A stretch of DNA of 10,600 nucleotides, taken from IMG/VR virus record IMGVR_UViG_2778261172_000008, one strand, 5' to 3'. Position numbers and translations under genes: made by a program. Under the pieces are notes generated by a model, which was not told the DNA's origin, searched no databases, and saw only the letters and a program-made list of their open reading frames with translations. How positions within the stretch are numbered: the stretch's first letter is position 1; every line of letters starts with the position of its first letter. This DNA is from a virus (Duplodnaviria; Heunggongvirae; Uroviricota; Caudoviricetes). Positions 1 through 10,600 of the stretch are shown piece after piece.

Positions 1-195
1 TCAAACATCAAAATAAGTCAATGATAAAAAACAAATAATAAAACACAACAATGAAATATGCCCCCTTTTGTGCCCCCACTGTTTTTCTGACCAATCTATT
101 TTCAGCCCATCAACAAATCGGAAAGTTAAATAATTTTTAATCAGTAAGTTTGGATCCGTAGTTCGGATCCAAACCAGTGCATCTTTTATCCACAT

Positions 196-495
196 AAAAA
201 ATTTTTTTTCGGAAGAACTGTTCACACTGTTCACCTTTCTTTTTTCTCCTTTTATTTCATAGTGATAGGTGGTGAATAATGGGTGAAGGGTGAACATTCG
301 ATTCTTCACCTCCGGCATTCTGCCGGTGTGACTTGTGCAGGGGATTAATCCTCCGCACTGAAATCACTCAGGAAGAAAAAAGTTTTTTTTGATTTGATTG
401 TTCACACTGTTCACCTTTCGTTTTTCTCTTTTAATTTCAGTGTGATAACGGGTTAATATACGGTGAAGGGTGAACAGTGGATTGTTCACCTTCGG
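196..495. repeat. crr (cis replication region): two ~120-bp direct repeats (about 196-315 and 371-495) with alpha-binding iterons
   Basis: Seen directly: 218-315 and 398-495 align base for base with few mismatches (period 180 bp). Each copy starts with an A-run/T-run plus GGAAGA and contains TGTTCACA/TGTTCACC (219-226, 228-235; 399-406, 408-415) and inverted GGTGAACA (289-296; 469-476; plus TGTTCACC at 483-490). Known: P4 crr is two 120-bp repeats carrying type I iterons bound by alpha. Confidence 0.75.
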
Positions 496-508
496 GGGAT
501 GTCGGGAT

Positions 509-534
509 AAAAAAAAGACCGGCAGATGCCGGTC
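509..534 (-). terminator. Rho-independent terminator of the alpha/left operon
   Basis: On the minus strand GACCGGC-AUCU-GCCGGUC (7-bp GC-rich stem, 517-534) is followed by 8 U (plus A-run 509-516), 8 nt after the alpha stop codon at 542-544. Confidence 0.75.
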
Positions 535-541
535 AGGTGGG

Positions 542-2875
542 TCAGGCTGTTGCAGGGTCGTCACATTTTGGCAGCCAGTCGCCGTAGCTTTCCTCTTTCA
601 GCGTCAGGTTGGTCTGTATCCCCTGTTTGGTATGGCGCTTCTCGTAATTCAGTCCGTATTCCTTCAGCATCACCGGCAGCCCCAGCCCGAACATTTTCAG
701 ACTGAGTACATTCCGGTAGCCGTTTGCCTCCATGTAGGCCAGATAGGCGTGATAGAGGTATTTACGGTAATTACGCGGGATGATACTGGCGTTCCCCATA
801 TACATGCCGCTGGTCTGCGGCAGGGTTTCCAGATAGCCGATAAAATCAAACGTCGGGTCGGCATCCCGTTTGATGTTCAGTGCCTCGTCTGAGTTCTGCT
901 GGGACTGAAGCAGTGACCGGGCGAGCATCGGGTCGCTGAACTTCTGCATCAGGTGACGCACGATGACCGCCAGCTCGCGGGTGATTTTGTCCTTAAGCTG
1001 CGGGTCGCGCTCCTGCGGGGCTATCTGTTCCGGGAAGTGAATAATCACCCGCCGGCGTGACACGCCGCCGCTGCGGTCGGTGAAGCGCATCGGGTTATTG
1101 TTCACGGCCAGAATCACCGCCGGGATGTGCGTGGAGTACGCATCCCGGTATTTCGGGTCAACGGACACCGCGTCGCCGCCGGTGATGGCCTTGAGTCCGG
1201 CACCGTCGCCGCTCCATTTTTCCTGGTCCGGCAGGCGTATCAGTGAGAAGCCAGTTAACGCGGCACGTTCACGCGGGGATTCCAGCGTCTCGATGGTGGC
1301 CGACGTGGCGTTATCCTCCCCGGCCAGCAGGGTGGCTATTTCGGCCATGATACTTTTGCCGCTGCCGCCGGGACCGGTCACCTCCAGAAAGAGCTGCCAG
1401 TCGTAGCGGTTTGCCAGCACCATAAACAGTGCGGCCAGAATCACGTCGCGTTTTTCCGCACGGCCACCGGCGGCACGGTCAAGCCAGCGCCAGAACGCGG
1501 GGGCGTGGGTCTCCAGCGTTTCACCGTCCACCGGCGGGGTGAAATCCACATCGCACAGGGTGCGCATCCAGTGTGACGGACTGTGCGGGTGGAACGTGCC
1601 GTTCTGCGTGTCGAGCACGCCGTTACGAAAGCCAATCAGGCGGCGGGAGGGGGCTTCCTGCTGCGGAATAATCAGCTTCAGGGTGTCCACCACGGAGGCC
1701 ACCTTCCCGGAGGAGAACGGCGCGCGCAGACGCTGAAACAGCCCGGCCACATCCCGGGCAAAGTCCTGTGGCGGCAGCACCTTCCAGACACCATTTTCAT
1801 AGCGGGACAGAAGCTGGCCGTTGGCATCGACCGCGAGCGCCTCGCCGTAATGCTCATAGATACGCATGGCCTTTTCGCTGGTACTCATGGCGGAAAACTC
1901 TGCTTCGCTCATGGTGTCGAACGGGCTTTCAGCCGGTGGCCGGATGGCATCGTAAATGGCCTTACGGGTGGCCTCCCCGCCGTACTGCGTGAAGGCATCA
2001 TTCCAGTCACCGAAGACCGGCGGCAGGGCAACAACGCCCTCACACGCATCTGCGGCTGCGGCGGCTTTTTTCTGGCCGTCACCGCTGAGGTCACGGTCAG
2101 CAGCAAGGACAATCTGACAGGCCGGATGCTTCTGCCGGGCAAGGCTGGCCAGAGAAAGGAGGTTCACGGAAGAAAGCGCCACCATCACCGTTTCACCGGT
2201 CAGGTGATGTACGGTAAGTGCGGTCGCGTATCCCTCCGCTATCCACAGACGTTTTCCGGCCTGATTCTGTCCTTCAAGGGTGTGACAGGTGCCCCTGACC
2301 TGTCCGCCTTTCAGGGTGCGCTTACGGCCGTCAGCACTGATTAACTGAAGGTTAACCAGTTCGCCGCTGTCGTCATACAGTGGCACCACAAGGTCACCGG
2401 CGCGCCAGCTCACGCCACCGGCTCTGTGTGTGCCGGTCAGCATCCGGCATTCCCGGCCGGGAAAGCCCTTGCGGGTCAGGTAGGCGTTACCGGTTCCGGG
2501 ACGGGTTTTCGCCATCAGGGTTTGTGCCAGTGCGGCGGCGTTCTTCCGGGCAGCGTCTGTTTCAGCAACGGCAGCGGCCGTCACTGCCGGGTCAGCCGGG
2601 GGCAGACTGCCGGTCACGGCAGCCACCTTTGCGGCCGCGTCGGACGGGGAAACACCAAACACCTTTTCAACCAGTTTCAGGCCGTCACCGGCACCACACT
2701 GATTGCAGTACCAGGTGCCGCGCCCCTCCCTGTCATCAAAACGGAAGCGGTCACTCCCGCCACAGACCGGACAGGGCTGATGACGGTTTTTCAGCACCTG
2801 AATCCCCAGCGCCGGGAGAATACGCTGCCAGTGGCCGAGCGCATGGCTGACGGTGGCGGTTACGTTCATTTTCAT
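542..2875 (-). CDS. alpha: P4 alpha-type DNA primase-helicase (replication initiator binding the ori/crr iterons)
   Basis: 777-aa ORF, the length I recall for P4 alpha. N-terminal zinc-ribbon CPVCGG...CNQCG, central Walker A GPGGSGKS. SD AAGGAG 8 nt upstream of the ATG at 2875. Followed by crr and a terminator. Confidence 0.93.
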   Translation of the reverse strand: MKMNVTATVSHALGHWQRILPALGIQVLKNRHQPCPVCGGSDRFRFDDREGRGTWYCNQCGAGDGLKLVEKVFGVSPSDAAAKVAAVTGSLPPADPAVTAAAVAETDAARKNAAALAQTLMAKTRPGTGNAYLTRKGFPGRECRMLTGTHRAGGVSWRAGDLVVPLYDDSGELVNLQLISADGRKRTLKGGQVRGTCHTLEGQNQAGKRLWIAEGYATALTVHHLTGETVMVALSSVNLLSLASLARQKHPACQIVLAADRDLSGDGQKKAAAAADACEGVVALPPVFGDWNDAFTQYGGEATRKAIYDAIRPPAESPFDTMSEAEFSAMSTSEKAMRIYEHYGEALAVDANGQLLSRYENGVWKVLPPQDFARDVAGLFQRLRAPFSSGKVASVVDTLKLIIPQQEAPSRRLIGFRNGVLDTQNGTFHPHSPSHWMRTLCDVDFTPPVDGETLETHAPAFWRWLDRAAGGRAEKRDVILAALFMVLANRYDWQLFLEVTGPGGSGKSIMAEIATLLAGEDNATSATIETLESPRERAALTGFSLIRLPDQEKWSGDGAGLKAITGGDAVSVDPKYRDAYSTHIPAVILAVNNNPMRFTDRSGGVSRRRVIIHFPEQIAPQERDPQLKDKITRELAVIVRHLMQKFSDPMLARSLLQSQQNSDEALNIKRDADPTFDFIGYLETLPQTSGMYMGNASIIPRNYRKYLYHAYLAYMEANGYRNVLSLKMFGLGLPVMLKEYGLNYEKRHTKQGIQTNLTLKEESYGDWLPKCDDPATA

Positions 2876-2889
2876 GGTGTTGTTCTCCT

Positions 2890-3210
2890 TCAGTGCAGTA
2901 CCGGCGCTTTTATGTGACGGGCACAGAGTTCATCCATCACAACCAGCCCGAGAAAGGACAGCGACGGCGCGGCCTTCAGGGGGCCGGATTCCATTAAATC
3001 TTCCAGCAGGGCACAGGCTATCTGACGCCCTTTTTCCTCACCGTGCTGGCGCAGATAAAAGCCTTCCAGCTCAGCGGCGATGGCCGCCTCCAGTGACTCA
3101 AGGGTGAGATGCGGGTAGCGGTGCTGACGTTCGCACACGGTCAGCCAGGCACAGGCGACAGCGCGACGGTAAAGGGCAGCGCGTAAGGCGGGCGGTAAGG
3201 GTGTTTTCAT
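2890..3210 (-). CDS. Left-operon small protein (106 aa), unknown function; possible alternative epsilon candidate
   Basis: ORF with SD GGGAGG about 6 nt upstream of the ATG at 3210. Its stop lies 14 bp before the alpha start, overlapping the alpha SD. Not assignable by eye to a named P4 gene. Confidence 0.6.
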
Positions 3211-3345
3211 TTGTTTTCCTCCCTGTGACAGATGACTGCATTCCGTGCCGGTTGCATTAACTGATAAGGCATATCTGCGTCTCCTGAAGACGTGCGTATC
3301 CCTGCGCGAATACGCACATTTAATTTTTCGGGTGTCGTTTTTTAA

Positions 3346-3801
3346 TTACAGATAATTGCGGTAACTGTTATCCGGGGTGATTTCCGGGTCAGGCTCCGTG
3401 CGGGGAATTTCCCGCCATTCCCGCGCTACCGGTGCTGCCCGGCTGACCGGAACAGTGTCCTGCGGGTAAATATCCAGATATTTTTCCCGCCATTTCTGTA
3501 ATTCCGGGTCTCCGGCCATTTCTTTCAGTACCGCATGCCGGTTTACGGGGCTGCGTTTAAACAGGTCAGGACGGTCACAGGTAAATTCCCGCAGAAAACG
3601 CCCCAGCGGGATGTCTGTGGTGCGCCCGTCAGCGAGGATACGCACAAGGATACTGAATTTACGGCGGTACGGGTTCCAGACAATGTCCGGGCAGCGGTAC
3701 GGCATTTCCCACGGAATACCGTCTTCCAGAATGCCAACCACGGCCACATCGGGAAAACCGGCAGAACGGTAAATCTCACCGGGCTGGGGAAAATCAAACA
3801 T
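3346..3801 (-). CDS. P4 orf151-like protein (151 aa), unknown function
   Basis: Length equals the P4 left-operon ORF known as orf151 and it sits upstream of alpha. Its start overlaps the stop of the upstream ORF by 8 bp (coupled-translation arrangement). Confidence 0.7.
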   Translation of the reverse strand: MFDFPQPGEIYRSAGFPDVAVVGILEDGIPWEMPYRCPDIVWNPYRRKFSILVRILADGRTTDIPLGRFLREFTCDRPDLFKRSPVNRHAVLKEMAGDPELQKWREKYLDIYPQDTVPVSRAAPVAREWREIPRTEPDPEITPDNSYRNYL

Positions 3802-4081
3802 GCGTCCTGTCTCCCCGGTCTTTCTGCTGGGCGAGAAAATCGCGGCACAGGCCTTTGGCTTTCAGTTCATTCAGCACAAAATCAATATCTTCATTCAGGT
3901 AGCTGAAAATATGCGGAATGTAGAGCTGATGCAGGCCGGAGAGTTCACGGTGAATCAAATCACCCCCAACAAACTGGGATACGGCGCTGGCGCGGTTGAG
4001 CTTATGGTAAGCCTCAATGCTGAGGTGTTCACGGGCGTCATGACGCGCTGAGACGGTCTGAGGGGCTTTTTTATTACGCAC
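3794..4081 (-). CDS. 95-aa left-operon protein with GTG start; candidate P4 epsilon (helper derepression/antirepressor) homolog
   Basis: The ORF track shows a 147-aa frame (3794..4237) whose first ~50 residues are Cys/Pro/Arg-rich and lack an SD. In the same frame a GTG at 4081 is preceded by GGAGG (4088-4092) with a 6-nt spacer, giving a 95-aa product ([10 protein letters not shown]...GDRTHV). The epsilon assignment rests only on my recollection that epsilon is about 95 aa and on position. Confidence 0.5.
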
Positions 4082-4271
4082 GGGACACCTCCACCACCGG
4101 CAGACGGGCAGCAAGGGAGAGCACATAGTCACGGACAAGGGAACGGCGGGCACTGCGTTCATCACCGGCGACGGTGCGAAGCATGCAGATACGGGGATGA
4201 CGGTCTGCGCGACGGACAGCCGCAAACACAAAGACAAATTCAGGGTGTGAAGGGGTAAGGGTTGTAGCCAT
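4074..4271 (-). CDS. First ORF of the left operon (65 aa); kil/eta-like candidate
   Basis: In-frame ATG at 4271 within the long 4074..4718 ORF, with SD GGAGG (4280-4284) 8 nt upstream. Stop overlaps the GTG start of the next ORF by 8 bp. The SD lies inside the seqC-like element. Identity with P4 kil/eta is inferred from position only. Confidence 0.4.
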
Positions 4272-4299
4272 GATGGCAGCCTCCGTTAGATAGCAGGTT

Positions 4300-4395
4300 A
4301 CGCTATCGCCGGAGTTTCCACGCTCGATGGCGATAGCCCAGACGGGGGTGGAAATACCGGCTCTAACGGATACCGGCCAGCCCGGAGGCTGCCCC
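4300..4395 (-). ncRNA. CI-RNA-like immunity RNA region (seqB) with cognate seqA/seqC target sites
   Basis: Seen: plus 4362-4369 TCTAACGG and 4383-4393 CGGAGGCTGCC are the exact reverse complement of 4275-4290 GGCAGCCTCCGTTAGA (seqC-like); 4550-4558 CCGTTAGAT (seqA-like) is also complementary to 4362-4369. A 9-bp stem (4302-4310/4329-4337) lies between. Known: P4 immunity uses a small CI RNA whose seqB pairs with seqA and seqC on the nascent transcript to force termination. RNA ends are not determinable. Confidence 0.45.
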
Positions 4396-4604
4396 GCCTG
4401 AGCTACCATTGACTCTGCGGCATAATGAGCGGACGCGGGCAGGATGCACGGAGTGCCATCTGCTCGACTGACCACACACCACACCATAATCTGGCGCTCT
4501 GTGGCGTTGATTGCGACACAAAAAAAGACGCATGGCGCGTCATATGTCGCCGTTAGATTGCTCGGGTTTCCACGCCCGGCTGCCGATTTTGCGACAGCGG
4601 AAAA

Positions 4605-4634
4605 ACTATATCCGCAAATGCCGGAAAAAGGCAA
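4605..4634 (-). promoter_or_regulatory. Candidate sigma70 early promoter (PLE-like) for the immunity region/left operon
   Basis: Minus strand: -35 TTGCCT (plus 4629-4634), 18-bp spacer, -10 TATAGT (plus 4605-4610). Lies 36 bp downstream of the vis stop and about 40 nt upstream of the seqA-like element. Confidence 0.35.
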
Positions 4635-4669
4635 GCCAGAAAAAGGGACTTTTTGCAGAACAGGCATCA

Positions 4670-4936
4670 TCATGCGTCGTACCCCCGTTTGCGTCCGGCA
4701 ATGCGCCCGGCCATCCATGCGGTGACTTCAGAGTGCAGCCAGGCCACATTTTTACCGCCAAGACTCACCTGTGGCGGAAATTCCCCCTTACGGATGAGTT
4801 CATAGATGGTCGAGCGTGACAGGCCGCACAGGTGCATCACTTCCGGCAGACGTAAAAAACGCTCCTGCGTGATGTTCGGCAGCGGCATCAGTGGCGTCAC
4901 AGGGGCGGGAGACGGGGAAGAAAAAACAGCTTGCAT
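4670..4936 (-). CDS. vis: Vis / AlpA-family small DNA-binding regulator (excision/late-promoter regulator)
   Basis: 88 aa, the length of P4 orf88/Vis. AlpA-type helix-turn-helix signature [27 protein letters not shown]. First gene of the minus-strand operon, divergent from sid. Confidence 0.8.
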
Positions 4937-5081
4937 CGGGCTACCTCGTTAATGTCCATACAGCACCGGATAAGTCCGTCCGGCTTCGGGTAGCGCTTTA
5001 TTTTGTGAATATTTTCAGCAGACGCAACAGGGGGGATTTGTTCCGGCAGCCTTACAATGCTTGTGTGTTTTTTGTTCATCT

Positions 5082-5121
5082 CCACTTAAAGTCATTTAAA
5101 GCCACTTAAAGCAATTTGTAA
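5082..5121. repeat. Four tandem 10-bp units (CCACTTAAAG / TCATTTAAAG / CCACTTAAAG / CAATTTGTAA) in the vis-sid intergenic region
   Basis: Read directly from the sequence; one-helical-turn periodicity upstream of vis suggests phased protein binding sites or intrinsically bent DNA. Confidence 0.6.
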
Positions 5122-5174
5122 TTTTTATAGTGAAATACAAATCGTTTTTTCTTATTCATTCCCGGCGAATTAAT

Positions 5175-5345
5175 AAAAACAAACAGTAATAAACAGCACA
5201 AAAAGCCCATCAACGGGTGAACAGTGGTGAACAGACGGTGAACAGTCATTACTGCGATTGTTCACCATTTAACTTACTGTATTACTTATCTTTTTTCTTA
5301 TGGTGAACAGAGGTGAACAGTAAAATATAAAAAAACAAACAGTAA
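5175..5345. other. Replication origin (ori): six type I iterons bracketed by a 15-bp direct repeat
   Basis: GGTGAACA at 5216-5223, 5226-5233, 5237-5244, 5302-5309, 5312-5319 and TGTTCACC at 5259-5266: the same octamer as in crr. AAAAACAAACAGTAA occurs at 5175-5189 and 5331-5345 on either side. Known: P4 ori and crr share alpha-binding iterons and lie about 4.5 kb apart. Confidence 0.75.
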
Positions 5346-5400
5346 GCCGGTTTTTCCTGCGACCTTTTCCTGGCTTGCCGGTGTGAGGATGAGTCTCCTG

Positions 5401-5470
5401 TGTCAGGGCTGGCACATCTGCAATGCGTCGTGTTGTTGTCCGGTGTACGTCACAATTTTCTCAACCTGAA
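5401..5470 (+). promoter_or_regulatory. Psid-like late promoter region with Ogr/delta-type activator dyad
   Basis: Perfect TGT-N12-ACA at 5437-5454 and an imperfect TGT-N10-ACA at 5401-5416, 34-87 bp upstream of the sid ATG; possible -10 CACAAT at 5451-5456; no -35. Known: P2/P4 late promoters are activated through TGT-N12-ACA dyads. Exact register relative to the TSS is not determinable here. Confidence 0.4.
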
Positions 5471-5487
5471 GTGACGAGGAGCCGAAA

Positions 5488-6222
5488 ATGTCTGACAACA
5501 CCATCCCTGAATATCTGCAATCCGCGCTGGCACAACTGGAAAAGGCCAGAGCCGCCCATCTTGAGAACGCCCGTCTGATGGATGAGACCGTCACGGCCAT
5601 TGAACGGGCAGAGCAGGAAAAAAATGCGCTGGCGCAGGCCGACGGAAACGACGCTGACGACTGGCGCACGGCCTTTCGTGCAGCCGGTGGTGTCCTGAGC
5701 GACGAGCTGAAACAGCGCCACATTGAGCGCGTGGCACGCCGGGAGCTGGTACAGGAATATGACAATCTGGCCGTGGTGCTGAATTTTGAACGCGAACGCC
5801 TGAAAGGGGCGTGTGACAGCACGGCCACCGCCTACCGGAAGGCACATCATCACCTTCTGAGTCTGTATGCAGAGCATGAGCTGGAACACGCCCTGAATGA
5901 AACCTGTGAGGCGCTTGTCCGGGCAATGCATCTGAGCATTCTGGTACAGGAAAATCCGCTCGCCAACACCACCGGCCATCAGGGCTACGTCGCACCGGAA
6001 AAGGCTGTCATGCAGCAGGTGAAATCATCGCTGGAACAGAAAATTAAACAGATGCAAATCAGCCTCACCGGCGAGCCGGTTCTCCGGCTGACCGGACTGT
6101 CAGCGGCAACACTCCCGCACATGGATTATGAGGTGGCAGGCACACCGGCACAGCGCAAGGTGTGGCAGGACAAAATAGACCAGCAGGGTGCAGAGCTTAA
6201 GGCCAGAGGACTGCTGTCATGA
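5488..6222 (+). CDS. sid: Sid, capsid size determination protein (external scaffold redirecting helper capsid to small size)
   Basis: 244 aa, the length of P4 Sid. First gene of the late operon, SD AGGAG 7 nt upstream. Stop overlaps the delta start (ATGA at 6219-6222). Confidence 0.88.
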   Translation: MSDNTIPEYLQSALAQLEKARAAHLENARLMDETVTAIERAEQEKNALAQADGNDADDWRTAFRAAGGVLSDELKQRHIERVARRELVQEYDNLAVVLNFERERLKGACDSTATAYRKAHHHLLSLYAEHELEHALNETCEALVRAMHLSILVQENPLANTTGHQGYVAPEKAVMQQVKSSLEQKIKQMQISLTGEPVLRLTGLSAATLPHMDYEVAGTPAQRKVWQDKIDQQGAELKARGLLS

Positions 6223-6719
6223 TTTACTGCCCGTCGTGTGGACATGTTGCTCACACTCGTCGCGCACATTTCATGGACGATGGCACCAAGATAATGATTG
6301 CACAGTGCCGGAATATTTATTGCTCTGCGACATTTGAAGCGAGTGAAAGCTTTTTCTCTGACAGTAAAGATTCAGGAATGGAATACATTTCAGGCAAACA
6401 GAGATACCGCGATTCACTGACTTCTGCCTCCGGCAGTATGAAACGCCCGAAAAGAATGCTTGTTACCGGATATTGTTGTCGGAGATGTAAAGGCCTTGCA
6501 CTGTCAAGAACATCGCGGCGTCTGTCTCAGGAAGTCACTGAACGTTTTTATGTGTGCACGGATCCGGGCTGTGGTCTGGTGTTTAAAACGCTTCAGACCA
6601 TCAACCGCTTCATTGTCCGCCCGGTCACGCCGGACGAACTGGCAGAACGCCTGCATGAAAAACAGGAACTGCCGCCAGTACGGTTAAAAACACAATCATA
6701 TTCGCTGCGTCTGGAATGA
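6219..6719 (+). CDS. delta: Delta, late transcription activator (tandem Ogr-like zinc fingers)
   Basis: 166 aa, the length of P4 delta. Two cysteine clusters: CPSCGH...C (N-terminal) and CCRRCKG...CTDPGC (C-terminal), consistent with a duplicated Ogr-type zinc finger. Confidence 0.88.
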   Translation: MIYCPSCGHVAHTRRAHFMDDGTKIMIAQCRNIYCSATFEASESFFSDSKDSGMEYISGKQRYRDSLTSASGSMKRPKRMLVTGYCCRRCKGLALSRTSRRLSQEVTERFYVCTDPGCGLVFKTLQTINRFIVRPVTPDELAERLHEKQELPPVRLKTQSYSLRLE

Positions 6720-6792
6720 GGGCTGCCGGTTAACCCCGGCCGTCGCCGCACACCGTATTTTTATTCTTCAGCATGATGAGAAAGAGATAACG

Positions 6793-7365
6793 ATGGAAAG
6801 CACAGCCTTACAGCAGGCCTTTGACACCTGTCAGAATAACAAAGCAGCATGGCTGCAACGCAAAAATGAGCTGGCTGCGGCCGAACAGGAATATCTGCGG
6901 CTTCTGTCCGGGGAAGGCAGAAACGTCAGTCGCCTGGACGAATTACGCAATATTATCGAAGTCAGAAAATGGCAGGTGAATCAGGCTGCCGGTCGTTATA
7001 TTCGTTCGCATGAAGCCGTTCAGCACATCAGCATCCGCGACCGGCTGAATGATTTTATGCAGCAGCACGGCACAGCACTGGCGGCCGCACTGGCACCGGA
7101 GCTGATGGGCTACAGTGAGCTGACGGCCATTGCCCGAAACTGTGCCATACAGCGTGCCACAGATGCCCTGCGTGAAGCCCTTCTGTCCTGGCTTGCGAAG
7201 GGGGAAAAAATTAATTATTCCGCACAGGATAGCGACATTTTAACGACCATCGGATTCAGGCCTGACGCGGCTTCGGTGGATGACAGCCGTGAAAAATTCA
7301 CTCCTGCGCAGAACATGATTTTTTCGCGTAAAAGTGCGCAACTGGCATCACATCAGTCTGTGTAA
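6793..7365 (+). CDS. psu: Psu, polarity suppression protein (Rho antagonist / capsid decoration)
   Basis: 190 aa, the length of P4 Psu. Last gene of the sid-delta-psu operon, immediately upstream of cos. Confidence 0.88.
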   Translation: MESTALQQAFDTCQNNKAAWLQRKNELAAAEQEYLRLLSGEGRNVSRLDELRNIIEVRKWQVNQAAGRYIRSHEAVQHISIRDRLNDFMQQHGTALAAALAPELMGYSELTAIARNCAIQRATDALREALLSWLAKGEKINYSAQDSDILTTIGFRPDAASVDDSREKFTPAQNMIFSRKSAQLASHQSV

Positions 7366-7400
7366 AACCCCCCGAAAATCCGCCCGTTTTTACTGAAAAA

Positions 7401-7430
7401 AGCCATGCATCGATAAGGTGCATGGCTTTG
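7401..7430 (+). terminator. Candidate terminator at the end of the late operon
   Basis: 9-bp stem AGCCATGCA (7401-7409) / TGCATGGCT (7419-7427) with a 9-nt loop, followed by TTTG; 36 bp after the psu stop. The T-run is short, so this is moderate. Confidence 0.5.
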
Positions 7431-7529
7431 CATGCGTTTTCCTGCCTCATTTTCTGCAAACCGCGCCATTCCCGGCGCGGCCTGAGCGTGTCAGTGCAAC
7501 TGCATTAAAACCGCCCCGCAAAGCGGGCG

Positions 7530-7548
7530 GGCGAGGCGGGGAAAGCAC
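7530..7548. other. cos site (19-nt cohesive end of P2/P4 type)
   Basis: Exact occurrence of GGCGAGGCGGGGAAAGCAC, which I recall as the P2/P4 cohesive-end sequence, flanked by a GC-rich imperfect dyad (7511-7530). Positioned after psu as in P4. Confidence 0.8.
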
Positions 7549-7682
7549 TGCGCGCAGACCTTGTTACATACTTAATAAAGTTCACAAATACTTAATACCA
7601 TCACGCTCATGTGCAAAACTGTTTATTAAAATGAATACTGCCCTATACATCTAAAGTGTCGTTACCATAATAAAAGAAGATT

Positions 7683-7707
7683 ATAAAAAGCCGCCATAAT
7701 GCGGCTT
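7683..7707 (-). terminator. Rho-independent terminator of the hotspot cargo gene
   Basis: Minus strand: 7-bp stem AAGCCGC / GCGGCUU (7688-7694 / 7701-7707), 6-nt loop, then UUUAU; 24 bp after the cargo gene stop at 7731-7733. Confidence 0.7.
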
Positions 7708-7730
7708 AAATCATACTCATTCCTAATAAG

Positions 7731-9194
7731 TTATTTGACATTCGATGCAGAAACCTTATTAGGCCTAGCATCAATCAAGACTAAATCCTTACCTTCTTTA
7801 ATCCCAAGTTCTTTGAAAGTCTTAAACAATCCAGACAATTCTCGATCAGTAAAATACAAAATAACCTTTATTGATTTTTTTGTTTCATTTGCCGCCTCAT
7901 ACACTTTAACCTGATTTGCCAGGTTCTGTTTAAGCTTGGAGTTACTAGCCAGTTTGAATTCAACCAATGTTTTATCTTTCGAACCTCTCGATATTTTGTA
8001 GTCAACGGGACCACGACCATTATTTACTTCACTATTGACATCAGAAATACTAGCAAACCATGTTAATCTAAACATTAACTGCAAATCAGCTTCACGCTTA
8101 ATTGGGACACCATTCAAATAGAATACTTTATAGCCATCATTATTTTCTATTACCTGTTTAAGATAACAGACTCGCTTATAGGCCTCTTCGAAAGTATCAT
8201 CCTTTGAACTAAAGAACTCCTGATGTTTATTAAAGATTGTATCAACCAAAAGTTGGACAGCTTCAATATACCTTTGCTCAGTTTCGCTAACCTTTGCATT
8301 ACTATCACGTTTAGCACCCCCAGAGTTTTGTTCTTTATAACGAATATAATAATCAATAAAACTCGGGTAATTCTTAATTGTCAAATCAGCAGCGGACTCT
8401 CGTTCCTTTTTCTTTGGAGAGTCTGGGAGACATCTATTGAAATAATCAGACAATTGTCCACGCAATTGATCATTAGGGATACTTTCACATATATCTCTAA
8501 AGTCCTCGATCATTTCATTTCTGTTAATCCAAGTTTCATCTTTTGTGAGTATATCTCTCGGAGTTAAAAGAACATAATCTCCAGCATATGTTGGCAACGT
8601 GAATTTTTTACTCATCCAACTTCTGGTTTCGTAATTAAATTCAACTTTTGGTACTAAGTGTTCAGAGAGATATTTACTATCTATATTTTCTTTAGAGAAA
8701 TCTTCAGTATACTTCAGTAAAAACGATTTAATTAAATTAGTGGTAAAATCACTAATACTATCCTTTCCTACCCCCTCCTTAATCAAACACAATTTTTCAA
8801 GATGACTTCCCTCAGTAATTTCCTCTTTACCAAAGTTTTTTAAAATACTTGAAAATGAGGTGGTTAAGGAATTTGCAAAATCAATACCCAATCCACTCCC
8901 ACCGTTCCCAACCATGCTATAACCCAGCCAGTTTTGTTTTACCTCAGGAAATAAAAACCAACTTTTGATTAAACCTCGATTTAATTCTCCATTCTGAGAA
9001 CGATCTCTTAAGAAAGAAACATATTTAATTATCCCCTGATGTAAATCTATATATTTCTCATTATTAAATAACAAAAACGGATCAATAAATAGCGGCAAAT
9101 CATTAATCAGAGAAATATTAAATGCACCATACTCTTTTATTTTTTCAGGAGATACATTAAAAAAATCTGAAAAATATATTCTTAACTTTGGCAT
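7731..9194 (-). CDS. Hotspot cargo protein (487 aa), unknown family; C-terminal PD-(D/E)xK-like nuclease motif; candidate anti-phage defence protein
   Basis: Single uninterrupted ORF with SD AGGAGG 5 nt upstream of the ATG. Composition roughly 25-40% GC in sampled stretches versus about 60% in the P4 core. It occupies the cos-int interval where P4 carries gop/beta/cII. Motifs: PVD (D398) followed 14 residues later by EFK (E412-x-K414) in alternating hydrophobic context; glycine-rich VGNGGSGLG at residues 95-103. No family recognised by eye. Confidence 0.85.
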   Translation of the reverse strand: MPKLRIYFSDFFNVSPEKIKEYGAFNISLINDLPLFIDPFLLFNNEKYIDLHQGIIKYVSFLRDRSQNGELNRGLIKSWFLFPEVKQNWLGYSMVGNGGSGLGIDFANSLTTSFSSILKNFGKEEITEGSHLEKLCLIKEGVGKDSISDFTTNLIKSFLLKYTEDFSKENIDSKYLSEHLVPKVEFNYETRSWMSKKFTLPTYAGDYVLLTPRDILTKDETWINRNEMIEDFRDICESIPNDQLRGQLSDYFNRCLPDSPKKKERESAADLTIKNYPSFIDYYIRYKEQNSGGAKRDSNAKVSETEQRYIEAVQLLVDTIFNKHQEFFSSKDDTFEEAYKRVCYLKQVIENNDGYKVFYLNGVPIKREADLQLMFRLTWFASISDVNSEVNNGRGPVDYKISRGSKDKTLVEFKLASNSKLKQNLANQVKVYEAANETKKSIKVILYFTDRELSGLFKTFKELGIKEGKDLVLIDARPNKVSASNVK

Positions 9195-9343
9195 AAAAAC
9201 CTCCTTTAAATCAAAGCTTAATCCAATAGATCATTAATCTTAACATACCACACTGAATCCTACCTGAGTTACTAACAAAGTTAGATTGATATCTCAGAAA
9301 ACGTGATAGTGTTAACATAAAATATAACAATAGATGTTACCCG

Positions 9344-10600
9344 CTATTCAGACTTAGCATAATCATAAGGTGTGATATATTTTTCTTTATTTGCTCCCAA
9401 GTAGTCAGCCCACCACTGAATCATTAGCCGACGTTCATCTAAATGCTCTGAAGTATGAATATAAGCAGCACGCACATTGTTACGCTCAGCATGACTCAAC
9501 TGACGCTCTATTGCGTCATCACTCCATAATCCTGACTCTCCCAAGGCTCCACGCGCCATTGTTCTAAATCCATGCCCACAAACTTCAGTTTTGGTGTCAT
9601 ATCCCATTGAGCGTAAAGCATTGTTTACCGTATTTTCACTCATAACTTTCGTAGCATCGTGATCCCCAGGAAAAAGAAACTCCTTATCACCACTAATTTG
9701 TGTTAGCTGCCTCAAGAGTTCCATGGCTTGATGACTTAATGGCACAATATGTTCTTCTTTCATTTTCATACCACGGTATGAGTAACGCACTCCTTTAATT
9801 TCTTCACGTTTTGCCGGAATACGCCAAATTGCGTTATCAAAATCAAACTCTCTCCAACGAGCAAAGCGTAATTCACTTGAGCGAACAAATGTTAGTAAAG
9901 AAAGCTGAACCGCAATTTTTGTCATTATACGACCACGATATGCAGCGAGACGTGCCAATAATTCGGGAAAACGATGGGAGGGTAACGCTGGATAGTGTCG
10001 TGTTTTAACTGTCGATAAAGCACCAGCCATATCACTGGCTGGGTTTGAGTCGATATAATCGTTCTGTACGGCATAACGCATAATAGCTGTAACACGCTGC
10101 TGAAGACGCTGCGCGACGTCATGCTTACCACTGGCATCAACTTTTTTAATCGGGGCTAACAGGTGGCTTGTTTTAAGCTGGCGGATATCGGACGATCCGA
10201 TATGAGGGAAGATATAAAGCTCAAGATAGCGAAGAACGCGCGCTCTATGGTCTTCACTCCAGCGCTTGTTACTGGCATGCCATTCACGAGCGATCGTTTC
10301 GAAAGTATATGCCCCCGATTTCTCGGCCTGAGCCGCTTTCTGCTCGGCTTTTGGATCAATACCCTGCACTAATAATCTTTTAGCTTCATCACGTTTTGCC
10401 CTTGCCTGGGCAAGTGTCACAGTAGGCCAAACGCCAAAAGCGAGGCGATCCTCTTTTTTGTCTGAAGGGCGTCTGTATTTCATACGCCAGTATTTAGATC
10501 CCTTGGCCGAAACCTCAAGATACAAACCGCCACCATCGGCCATTTTGTAGGTTTTGTCTTTTGGCTTTGCGGTCTCGACCAGTCTGGCGTTGAGCTTCAT
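9344..10600 (-). CDS. int: P4-type tyrosine integrase (site-specific recombinase)
   Basis: 418 aa. N-terminal arm-binding signature MKLNARLVETAKPKDKTYKMADGGGLYLEVSAKGSKYWRMKY, C-terminal catalytic HGFRTMARG box and a downstream tyrosine region (RAAYIHT). The ATG is the last three bases of the window, so RBS, promoter and attachment site are outside it. Confidence 0.93.
   Translation of the reverse strand: MKLNARLVETAKPKDKTYKMADGGGLYLEVSAKGSKYWRMKYRRPSDKKEDRLAFGVWPTVTLAQARAKRDEAKRLLVQGIDPKAEQKAAQAEKSGAYTFETIAREWHASNKRWSEDHRARVLRYLELYIFPHIGSSDIRQLKTSHLLAPIKKVDASGKHDVAQRLQQRVTAIMRYAVQNDYIDSNPASDMAGALSTVKTRHYPALPSHRFPELLARLAAYRGRIMTKIAVQLSLLTFVRSSELRFARWREFDFDNAIWRIPAKREEIKGVRYSYRGMKMKEEHIVPLSHQAMELLRQLTQISGDKEFLFPGDHDATKVMSENTVNNALRSMGYDTKTEVCGHGFRTMARGALGESGLWSDDAIERQLSHAERNNVRAAYIHTSEHLDERRLMIQWWADYLGANKEKYITPYDYAKSE

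Follow-up and report, generated by a model that had tools for sequence, protein, structure and literature searches.

The gene that lies between cos and the integrase gene int in the satellite recorded as IMG/VR virus IMGVR_UViG_2778261172_000008 (Duplodnaviria; Heunggongvirae; Uroviricota; Caudoviricetes) is DS-20, a stand-alone, single-protein anti-phage system carried as swappable cargo of the P4 hotspot. The whole stretch analysed, hereafter the window, comprises 10,600 nucleotides, and the DS-20 coding sequence (487 residues plus stop codon, with an ATG start in the list of open reading frames, ORFs) occupies positions 7731-9194 on the minus strand. Its product joins a predicted C-terminal nuclease domain to an N-terminal module that matches no solved fold, and comparison with relatives in which that module is coupled to other effectors tips the balance slightly towards a sensor-effector mode of action.

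The window protein is identical over 487/487 residues to WP_032291790.1 (the RefSeq-annotated copy), which was cloned as PDX1 in the DefensePredictor study (DeWeirdt et al., Science 2026, PMC13092281; bioRxiv 10.1101/2025.01.08.631726), where 42 transcription units, 13 of them with PD-(D/E)XK domains, were validated in MG1655 against 24 phages. Table S6 of that study gives PDX1 as defensive (TRUE), as a 'Predicted novel defense gene' and under the DS_name DS-20; the name is absent from its main text, which holds no DS-20-specific mechanism, and the nearest HHblits neighbour of DS-20 reported there is the Lamassu PDDEXK effector LmuA. Earlier, Table S1 of Rousset et al. (2022; PMC9122126) had listed P4 hotspot system 20 as 'DpnII-MboI', a label derived from HHpred, with the comment 'Nuclease' and 73 occurrences, and WP_032291790 appears at least 18 times in the same table. 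DS-20 sequence strings are missing from the tested-systems table of that work, and on this sequence comparison DS-20 appears not to be among the 18 P4 systems cloned there. Arg296 of the window protein and of WP_032291790.1 is replaced by Cys in the system 20 representative (GGAKR versus GGAKC), a single substitution within a linker of variable sequence.

DS-20 is absent from the supplementary data published with de Sousa et al. (2026; new P4 systems), with Darracq et al. (2024; sedentary chromosomal integron, SCI, cassettes), with Mordret et al. (2025) and with a 2026 integron-cassette screen, and none of the newly reported P4 systems (Crouga, Bandua, Aernus, Toga, Reve and Hailong) corresponds to it by description. 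A literature text search returned no paper on the mechanism of DS-20, on the Pfam families DUF8370/DUF8371 that make up its N-terminal module, on the PADLOC candidate PDC-M36, or on DpnII-MboI in a defence setting. DS-20 is established as a published, experimentally validated one-protein anti-phage system and is hence not undescribed: the initial annotation had recognised a defence module correctly, the identical protein having been scored defensive, and had erred in supposing that it may be undescribed, given its listing as system 20 in 2022, its validation as DS-20 in 2025-26 and the related PADLOC candidate PDC-M36A. What is added here is a domain dissection and comparative analysis of one of many validated but mechanistically unexplained systems, whose family has a great many members and has been transferred very widely.

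The exchange of cargo is evident from comparison with reference P4 (NC_001609). Window positions 1-7529 are 98.2% identical to P4, the homology ends at cos (window 7529), no DNA homology to P4 is found between 7530 and 9358, and homology returns, at 83% identity, only from ~9359, within the 3' end of int. The window thus represents P4 itself carrying other cargo in place of gop/beta/cII, the configuration that Table S1 of Rousset et al. (2022; PMC9122126) gives for reference P4. The segment standing in place of gop/beta/cII (7530-9358, without strand; delimited by GC content and by homology to P4) is low in GC, at 0.28-0.35 across ~7600-9400, gene and surroundings included, versus 0.55-0.65 in the backbone. 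Its left edge is the P2/P4 cos 19-mer GGCGAGGCGGGGAAAGCAC (7530-7548, plus strand) and the right edge of the hotspot is a divergent allele of the P4-type tyrosine integrase int (9344-10600, minus strand), and DS-20 is therefore the sole gene of the cos-int interval. The gene has its own Shine-Dalgarno sequence, AAAGGAGG (9200-9207, minus strand), separated by a 5-nt spacer from the ATG at 9194, and its own intrinsic terminator, a stem-loop AAGCCGCATTATGGCGGCTT followed by a T-run (7688-7707, minus strand), ~20 nt past the stop codon. Coordinates, signals and base composition agree with the initial annotation in its description of a single 487-residue ORF between cos and int, horizontally acquired as single-gene cargo of the P4 defence hotspot, and searches with PADLOC, Pfam and NCBIfam gave the DS-20 protein no homology to gop, beta or cII. 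A different int allele seems to have come in with the cargo, since int DNA is only ~83% identical to P4 int against 98% for the remaining backbone and the junction falls within the int 3' end; the int ORF begins at the last base of the window, and its true start may be outside it.

Domain architecture of DS-20

The predicted C-terminal domain (residues 356-487; 7734-8129, minus strand) was examined in a full-length AlphaFold2 model built on a 102-sequence alignment (predicted local distance difference test, pLDDT, 81; predicted TM-score, pTM, 0.64). Its elements follow the order helix (368-377), strand, strand (398-402), strand (408-415), helix (421-435), strand, which is the alpha-beta-beta-beta-alpha-beta core of PD-(D/E)xK nucleases; the first helix bears E368, the second strand D398 and the third strand both E412 and K414. 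These four residues (codons 8091-8093, 8001-8003, 7959-7961 and 7953-7955, respectively, minus strand) are invariant in 102 homologues, as are the motifs PVD (396-398) and EFK (412-414), and Q428 is nearly invariant. The closest folds to the domain are Type II restriction endonucleases (BamHI/BglII-like), and its charge is basic, +9 in DS-20 and +7.1 as the family mean. As modelled, the C-terminal ~130 residues of DS-20 show a BamHI/BglII-like PD-(D/E)xK nuclease fold in which the E-D-ExK centre is intact. A Foldseek search of the full model against the PDB gave no significant match (best E 0.03), and Pfam hmmscan gave no PF18742 (DpnII-MboI) match for the full-length protein; below threshold, PF18742 was matched by the C-domains of 3/7 orthologues, at 12.5-13 bits versus a gathering cut-off of 27 (E ~0.1).

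The PD-(D/E)xK-like C-terminus proposed in the initial annotation is thereby borne out in the predicted structure, and its PVD398 and EFK412-414 were placed correctly; the helix glutamate it gave as E369 was off by one, position 369 being Ala and the invariant helix residue E368, and D370 varies across the superfamily. On the remainder of the protein, the N-terminal region, put at ~280 residues, is a module of ~355, and nucleotide binding by its glycine-rich loop, though conceivable, gained no support.

The N-terminal module (hereafter N-module; residues 1-355; 8130-9194, minus strand) corresponds to DUF8371 (PF28130) together with DUF8370 (PF28123) in the precomputed annotation of the identical cluster and of all full-length homologues. 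Both models are missing from the local Pfam copy used in our own profile searches, and neither that copy nor NCBIfam nor PDB sequences yielded a match to the N-module, by single query or by profile; profile searches with the full protein likewise returned no functional name, the best Pfam match being only DUF349 at E 0.54. Modelled by itself (residues 1-355, 126 diverse sequences), the N-module reaches pLDDT 90.6 and pTM 0.88, so that it models confidently and nevertheless matches no solved fold; the AlphaFold2 models show it as largely helices plus a single long beta-hairpin (176-203). Scored over 83 representatives of every architecture, a set of polar residues (D32, D38, H52, E84, N97, H131, E133, D145, S148, D149, T163 and E288) is virtually invariant.

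The glycine-rich loop VGNGGSGLG (V95-G103; 8886-8912, minus strand), singled out by conservation and predicted to be flexible, has N97 and G99 conserved superfamily-wide and is the sole low-confidence part of both models (pLDDT <50 at 84-100 and 92-97). Within GNGGSGLG there is no Walker A K[ST], no P-loop nucleoside triphosphatase (NTPase) or Rossmann match of note was found by fold or profile, and Pfam and PADLOC detected no STAND/P-loop NTPase, SMC or DUF4263 domain in DS-20. The N-module has an acidic net charge overall. It may include a tandem-helix-hairpin-helix (HhH)-like sub-domain, which is treated as a weak lead only because no HhH Pfam model matches the segment in seven orthologues and because the segment is slightly acidic.

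Effector exchange and proposed mode of action

The family comprises at least 6,895 homologues in a 90%-clustered database; clustering at 50% identity leaves 2,252 or more clusters with E <1e-3. It ranges from Proteobacteria to Chlorobium, Firmicutes, Chloroflexi and Actinobacteria, and its solo full-length forms are ~60% identical across Gammaproteobacteria, Betaproteobacteria and Chlorobium. C-terminal architectures were surveyed among the best 150 representatives, many of which keep the N-module (E 1e-121 to ~1e-58) but carry a different C-terminal domain: TIR in eight representatives (also TIR/SEFIR), CHAT in three, the caspase Peptidase_C14 in two (one also with EAD7), the phosphorylase PNP_UDP_1 in one, as well as SIR2_2, and EAD7 alone.

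All representatives were then aligned onto the family alignment and scored for the catalytic tetrad E-D-E-K, which is kept in 40/47 solo forms (480-520 residues), in 0/15 fusion forms (at least 550 residues) and in 4/20 shorter forms (430-479 residues); for solo versus fusion forms the Fisher p is 1.8e-9, a value that carries no correction for phylogeny. Fusion proteins retain a recognisable but eroded nuclease-fold domain, typically with the D398-bearing hairpin deleted, so that where an effector has been appended the fold is kept and the catalytic residues are lost, and conservation of the N-module is equal in the solo and fusion groups. A module without a known fold, combined with effector swapping and decay of the nuclease centre, leads to a concrete, testable sensor-effector hypothesis.

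Accordingly arranged, DS-20 would have its N-module as sensor or switch and its nuclease as effector, with cue-released DNA cutting and a probably abortive outcome, a reading to which we give somewhat better than an even chance because relatives wire the N-module to TIR, SIR2, CHAT, caspase, PNP-type phosphorylase or the EAD7 adaptor. In the uninfected cell, the acidic N-module would keep the basic nuclease domain in check, an autoinhibition suggested by their opposite charges; an infection cue would be sensed by the invariant acidic/His pocket together with the flexible glycine-rich loop; the cue would release or assemble the nuclease, which would then cut DNA, most likely without sequence specificity. 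The outcome would probably be abortive and not restriction-like, since the activities of the relatives' effectors (NAD+ depletion, proteolysis, nucleoside cleavage) argue for a cell-directed result over sequence-specific restriction.

Several points weigh against this reading. Opposite net charge is the one ground on which autoinhibition is suggested, and inter-domain geometry is uncertain in the full-length model, as its pTM indicates. By sequence, the N-module, at ~60% identity across phyla, is conserved to a degree unusual among sensors of phage proteins, and its invariant Asp/Glu/His set could mark an enzyme instead of a sensor. The difference in tetrad retention, uncorrected as it is, belongs here as well, and so do tetrad-less short relatives (P0193, P0272) that stand in conserved housekeeping synteny in three genomes with no effector nearby.

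A broader proposal, which we hold tentatively and at somewhat less than even chances, is that the DUF8371/DUF8370 module may be a structurally new immune sensor or switch domain, not recognised before, that defines a large superfamily (at least 2,252 clusters) of single-chain, plug-in-effector defence proteins and reads a conserved small-molecule or nucleic-acid cue. If so, the acidic/His pocket and the glycine loop would read that conserved cue and not a variable phage protein, and the plug-in effectors would be the PD-(D/E)xK nuclease, TIR, SIR2, CHAT, caspase, PNP or partners recruited through EAD7.

The strongest competitor to the sensor-effector reading, possible but on the unlikely side, is direct, restriction-like defence, in which the N-module would recognise phage DNA by some feature, such as modified bases, ends or replication structures, and only that DNA would be cleaved, the cell surviving, much as with a methylase-free, Type IV-like enzyme. 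The kinship of the nuclease domain with Type II restriction endonucleases, its basic charge and the putative tandem-HhH-like sub-domain all fit such a role, as does the solo gene, which like Type IV enzymes comes with no methyltransferase or second gene; restriction enzymes are, moreover, common among P4 hotspot cargoes, and the high conservation of the N-module suits recognition of an invariant chemical feature. It is the cell-directed character of the effectors in the relatives that argues the other way.

Less probable again, and in our judgement improbable, is that the N-module has enzymatic activity of its own, as a new type of metal-dependent hydrolase or transferase with a nucleotide or nucleic acid as substrate; this activity would be required for defence, and the nuclease fold would add a second activity or a DNA anchor. 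Retention of D32, D38, H52, E84, H131, E133, D145, S148, D149, E288 and the N-x-G-x-G-L-G loop in every architecture is a pattern typical of catalytic or metal sites, and the keeping of the nuclease-fold domain even when catalytically dead implies a non-catalytic role for that domain; against this, no profile or fold match links the N-module to any enzyme family, and coupling to classic suicide effectors is commoner among sensors.

Genomic contexts and other features of the satellite

Wherever a locus was examined, the full-length gene stands alone within mobile or defence DNA, with no methyltransferase or second gene beside it either in the single-gene hotspot of the window or in 7 other loci. 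In Pantoea, the DS-20 homologue sits in another P4-like hotspot; in Methylomagnum, it is a prophage moron; in Chlorobium, it lies in an island with a SMODS+SLATT CBASS and an MmeI-type restriction-modification system; in Neisseria, it belongs to an integrative and conjugative element (ICE) and adjoins a type II CBASS and an EndoU toxin; and in Billgrantia, it occupies an islet after guaA. Nineteen plasmids carry a gene of the family, ten of them conjugative. In Vibrio parahaemolyticus, the homologue is a chromosomal-integron cassette (8001-9455) between attC-like repeats, within an array (JMMP01000018.1 1-17455) in which an attC-like repeat of ~127 nt is present at least 16 times and which also holds a PD-T7-4 homologue at 14506-15183 (E=9e-77). 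The same array encodes an NsnB/AriA-like ATPase pair (381-2229), a faint DUF4238 match (7037-7852) and several unannotated cassette proteins.

The whole segment is present in 17/5,426 complete E. coli genomes, always annotated as 'hypothetical protein', and tblastn found no homologue in 50,697 deposited phage genomes. The DS-20 protein matches PHROG phrog_30194 (E=5e-33), whose members presumably come from prophages or satellites and not from sequenced virions. E. coli 63-2 (NZ_CP050040.1, stretch L001 7061-13201) contains a decayed satellite, with the alpha primase a truncated pseudogene and sid and delta missing, in which DS-20 and int are intact beside tRNA-Leu, which suggests that the defence gene outlives its vehicle. 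That the gene primarily serves the satellite, as an addiction toxin or in P4 exploitation of its P2 helper, with any effect on plaquing incidental to cloning, would accord with its carriage beside cos and int and with its persistence with int in 63-2, as an addictive gene might persist, but is highly improbable given the same solo gene in integron cassettes, prophages, ICEs, plasmids and defence islands without a P4/P2 connection, the lack of an antitoxin-like partner, the defensive score of DS-20 outside the P4 context (DeWeirdt et al., PMC13092281) and the general inactivity of P4 cargo systems on P2 (Rousset et al., PMC9122126).

The short tetrad-less relatives stand apart from these mobile contexts. 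They measure 476-477 residues and occur in three ~2.5-Mb genomes (stretches L011, L012 and L013, 7001-8434) in the order radical-SAM, the gene, holB, M20 peptidase, pcrA-uvrD and guaA, with no mobile-element marks. Defence cargo thus does not account for the whole of the wider superfamily, and these proteins may form a domesticated, non-defence branch next to replication and repair genes. The idea that such relatives act with an effector in trans, on the two-gene model of PDC-M36, found no support, the three loci being without a partner gene. Directly after a further tetrad-less relative (P0194) and on the same strand lies a 464-residue ORF without a Pfam match (L014 2683-4077, plus strand), which could be the partner or effector gene of a two-gene variant.

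Elsewhere in the window, two 120-nt direct repeats (196-315 and 376-495; 80% identical, with a 60-nt spacer) sit just past the 3' end of the alpha primase gene and match the annotated P4 cis replication region (crr) of record X05623. The GGTGAACAG iterons at 5216-5234 and 5302-5320, in the AT-rich region that separates the leftward operon from the rightward one, are probably the type-I repeats of the P4 ori, 'origin of DNA replication' being annotated under the P4 match. Rfam gives gathering-level matches to the C4 antisense RNA (P4 CI immunity RNA family; 4326-4413, minus strand, 76 bits) and to the Hfq-binding small RNA isrK (4521-4598, minus strand, 72.5 bits), and the long mechanical ORFs over the 4326-4598 region are therefore probably not genes.

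Relation to known systems

Of the published systems, DS-20 itself, tested as PDX1, has the same accession and sequence as the window gene, with no sequence difference, and is likewise a single-gene unit (DeWeirdt et al., PMC13092281), and system 20 of Rousset et al. (PMC9122126) is the same protein at the same locus, its representative having C296 instead of R296. Among PADLOC candidates, the profile of PDC-M36A (PDLC04597) matches the DS-20 N-module at E=8e-21, with residues 5-329 aligned to positions 5-324 of the 457-position profile, and comparable matches are given by every architectural variant, through the N-module and not through the C-terminus. The PADLOC 'M' series denotes multi-gene candidates; the DS-20 interval holds a single gene, with neither a full-length match to the PDC-M36 profile nor a partner gene, and PDC-M36A is, on sequence grounds, best regarded as a distant sister family of DS-20 and not the same family.

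Compared with Type II restriction endonucleases (the BamHI/BstYI/BglII/OkrAI group and PF18742, DpnII-MboI), DS-20 has no cognate methyltransferase and possesses an extra 355-residue module; with no methyltransferase in its locus, it does not belong to a restriction-modification system. Nor does it belong to Shedu (SduA, DUF4263), to which neither Pfam nor PADLOC gave a match at E<=10.

Avs/NLR-like STAND proteins, Lamassu LmuA and Shedu SduA are modular immune proteins of the single-chain or sensor-effector kind. With all three DS-20 would share a common logic, in which a constant sensing or regulatory module is combined with interchangeable effectors (PD-(D/E)xK, TIR, SIR2, protease), and, if the proposal of a new immune sensor or switch domain is true, the DUF8371/DUF8370 superfamily would be a non-NTPase counterpart of STAND/Avs-type receptors. 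With respect to Shedu the arrangement is reversed: there the nuclease is constant and the N-terminus varies, whereas in the DS-20 family the N-module is constant and the effector varies.

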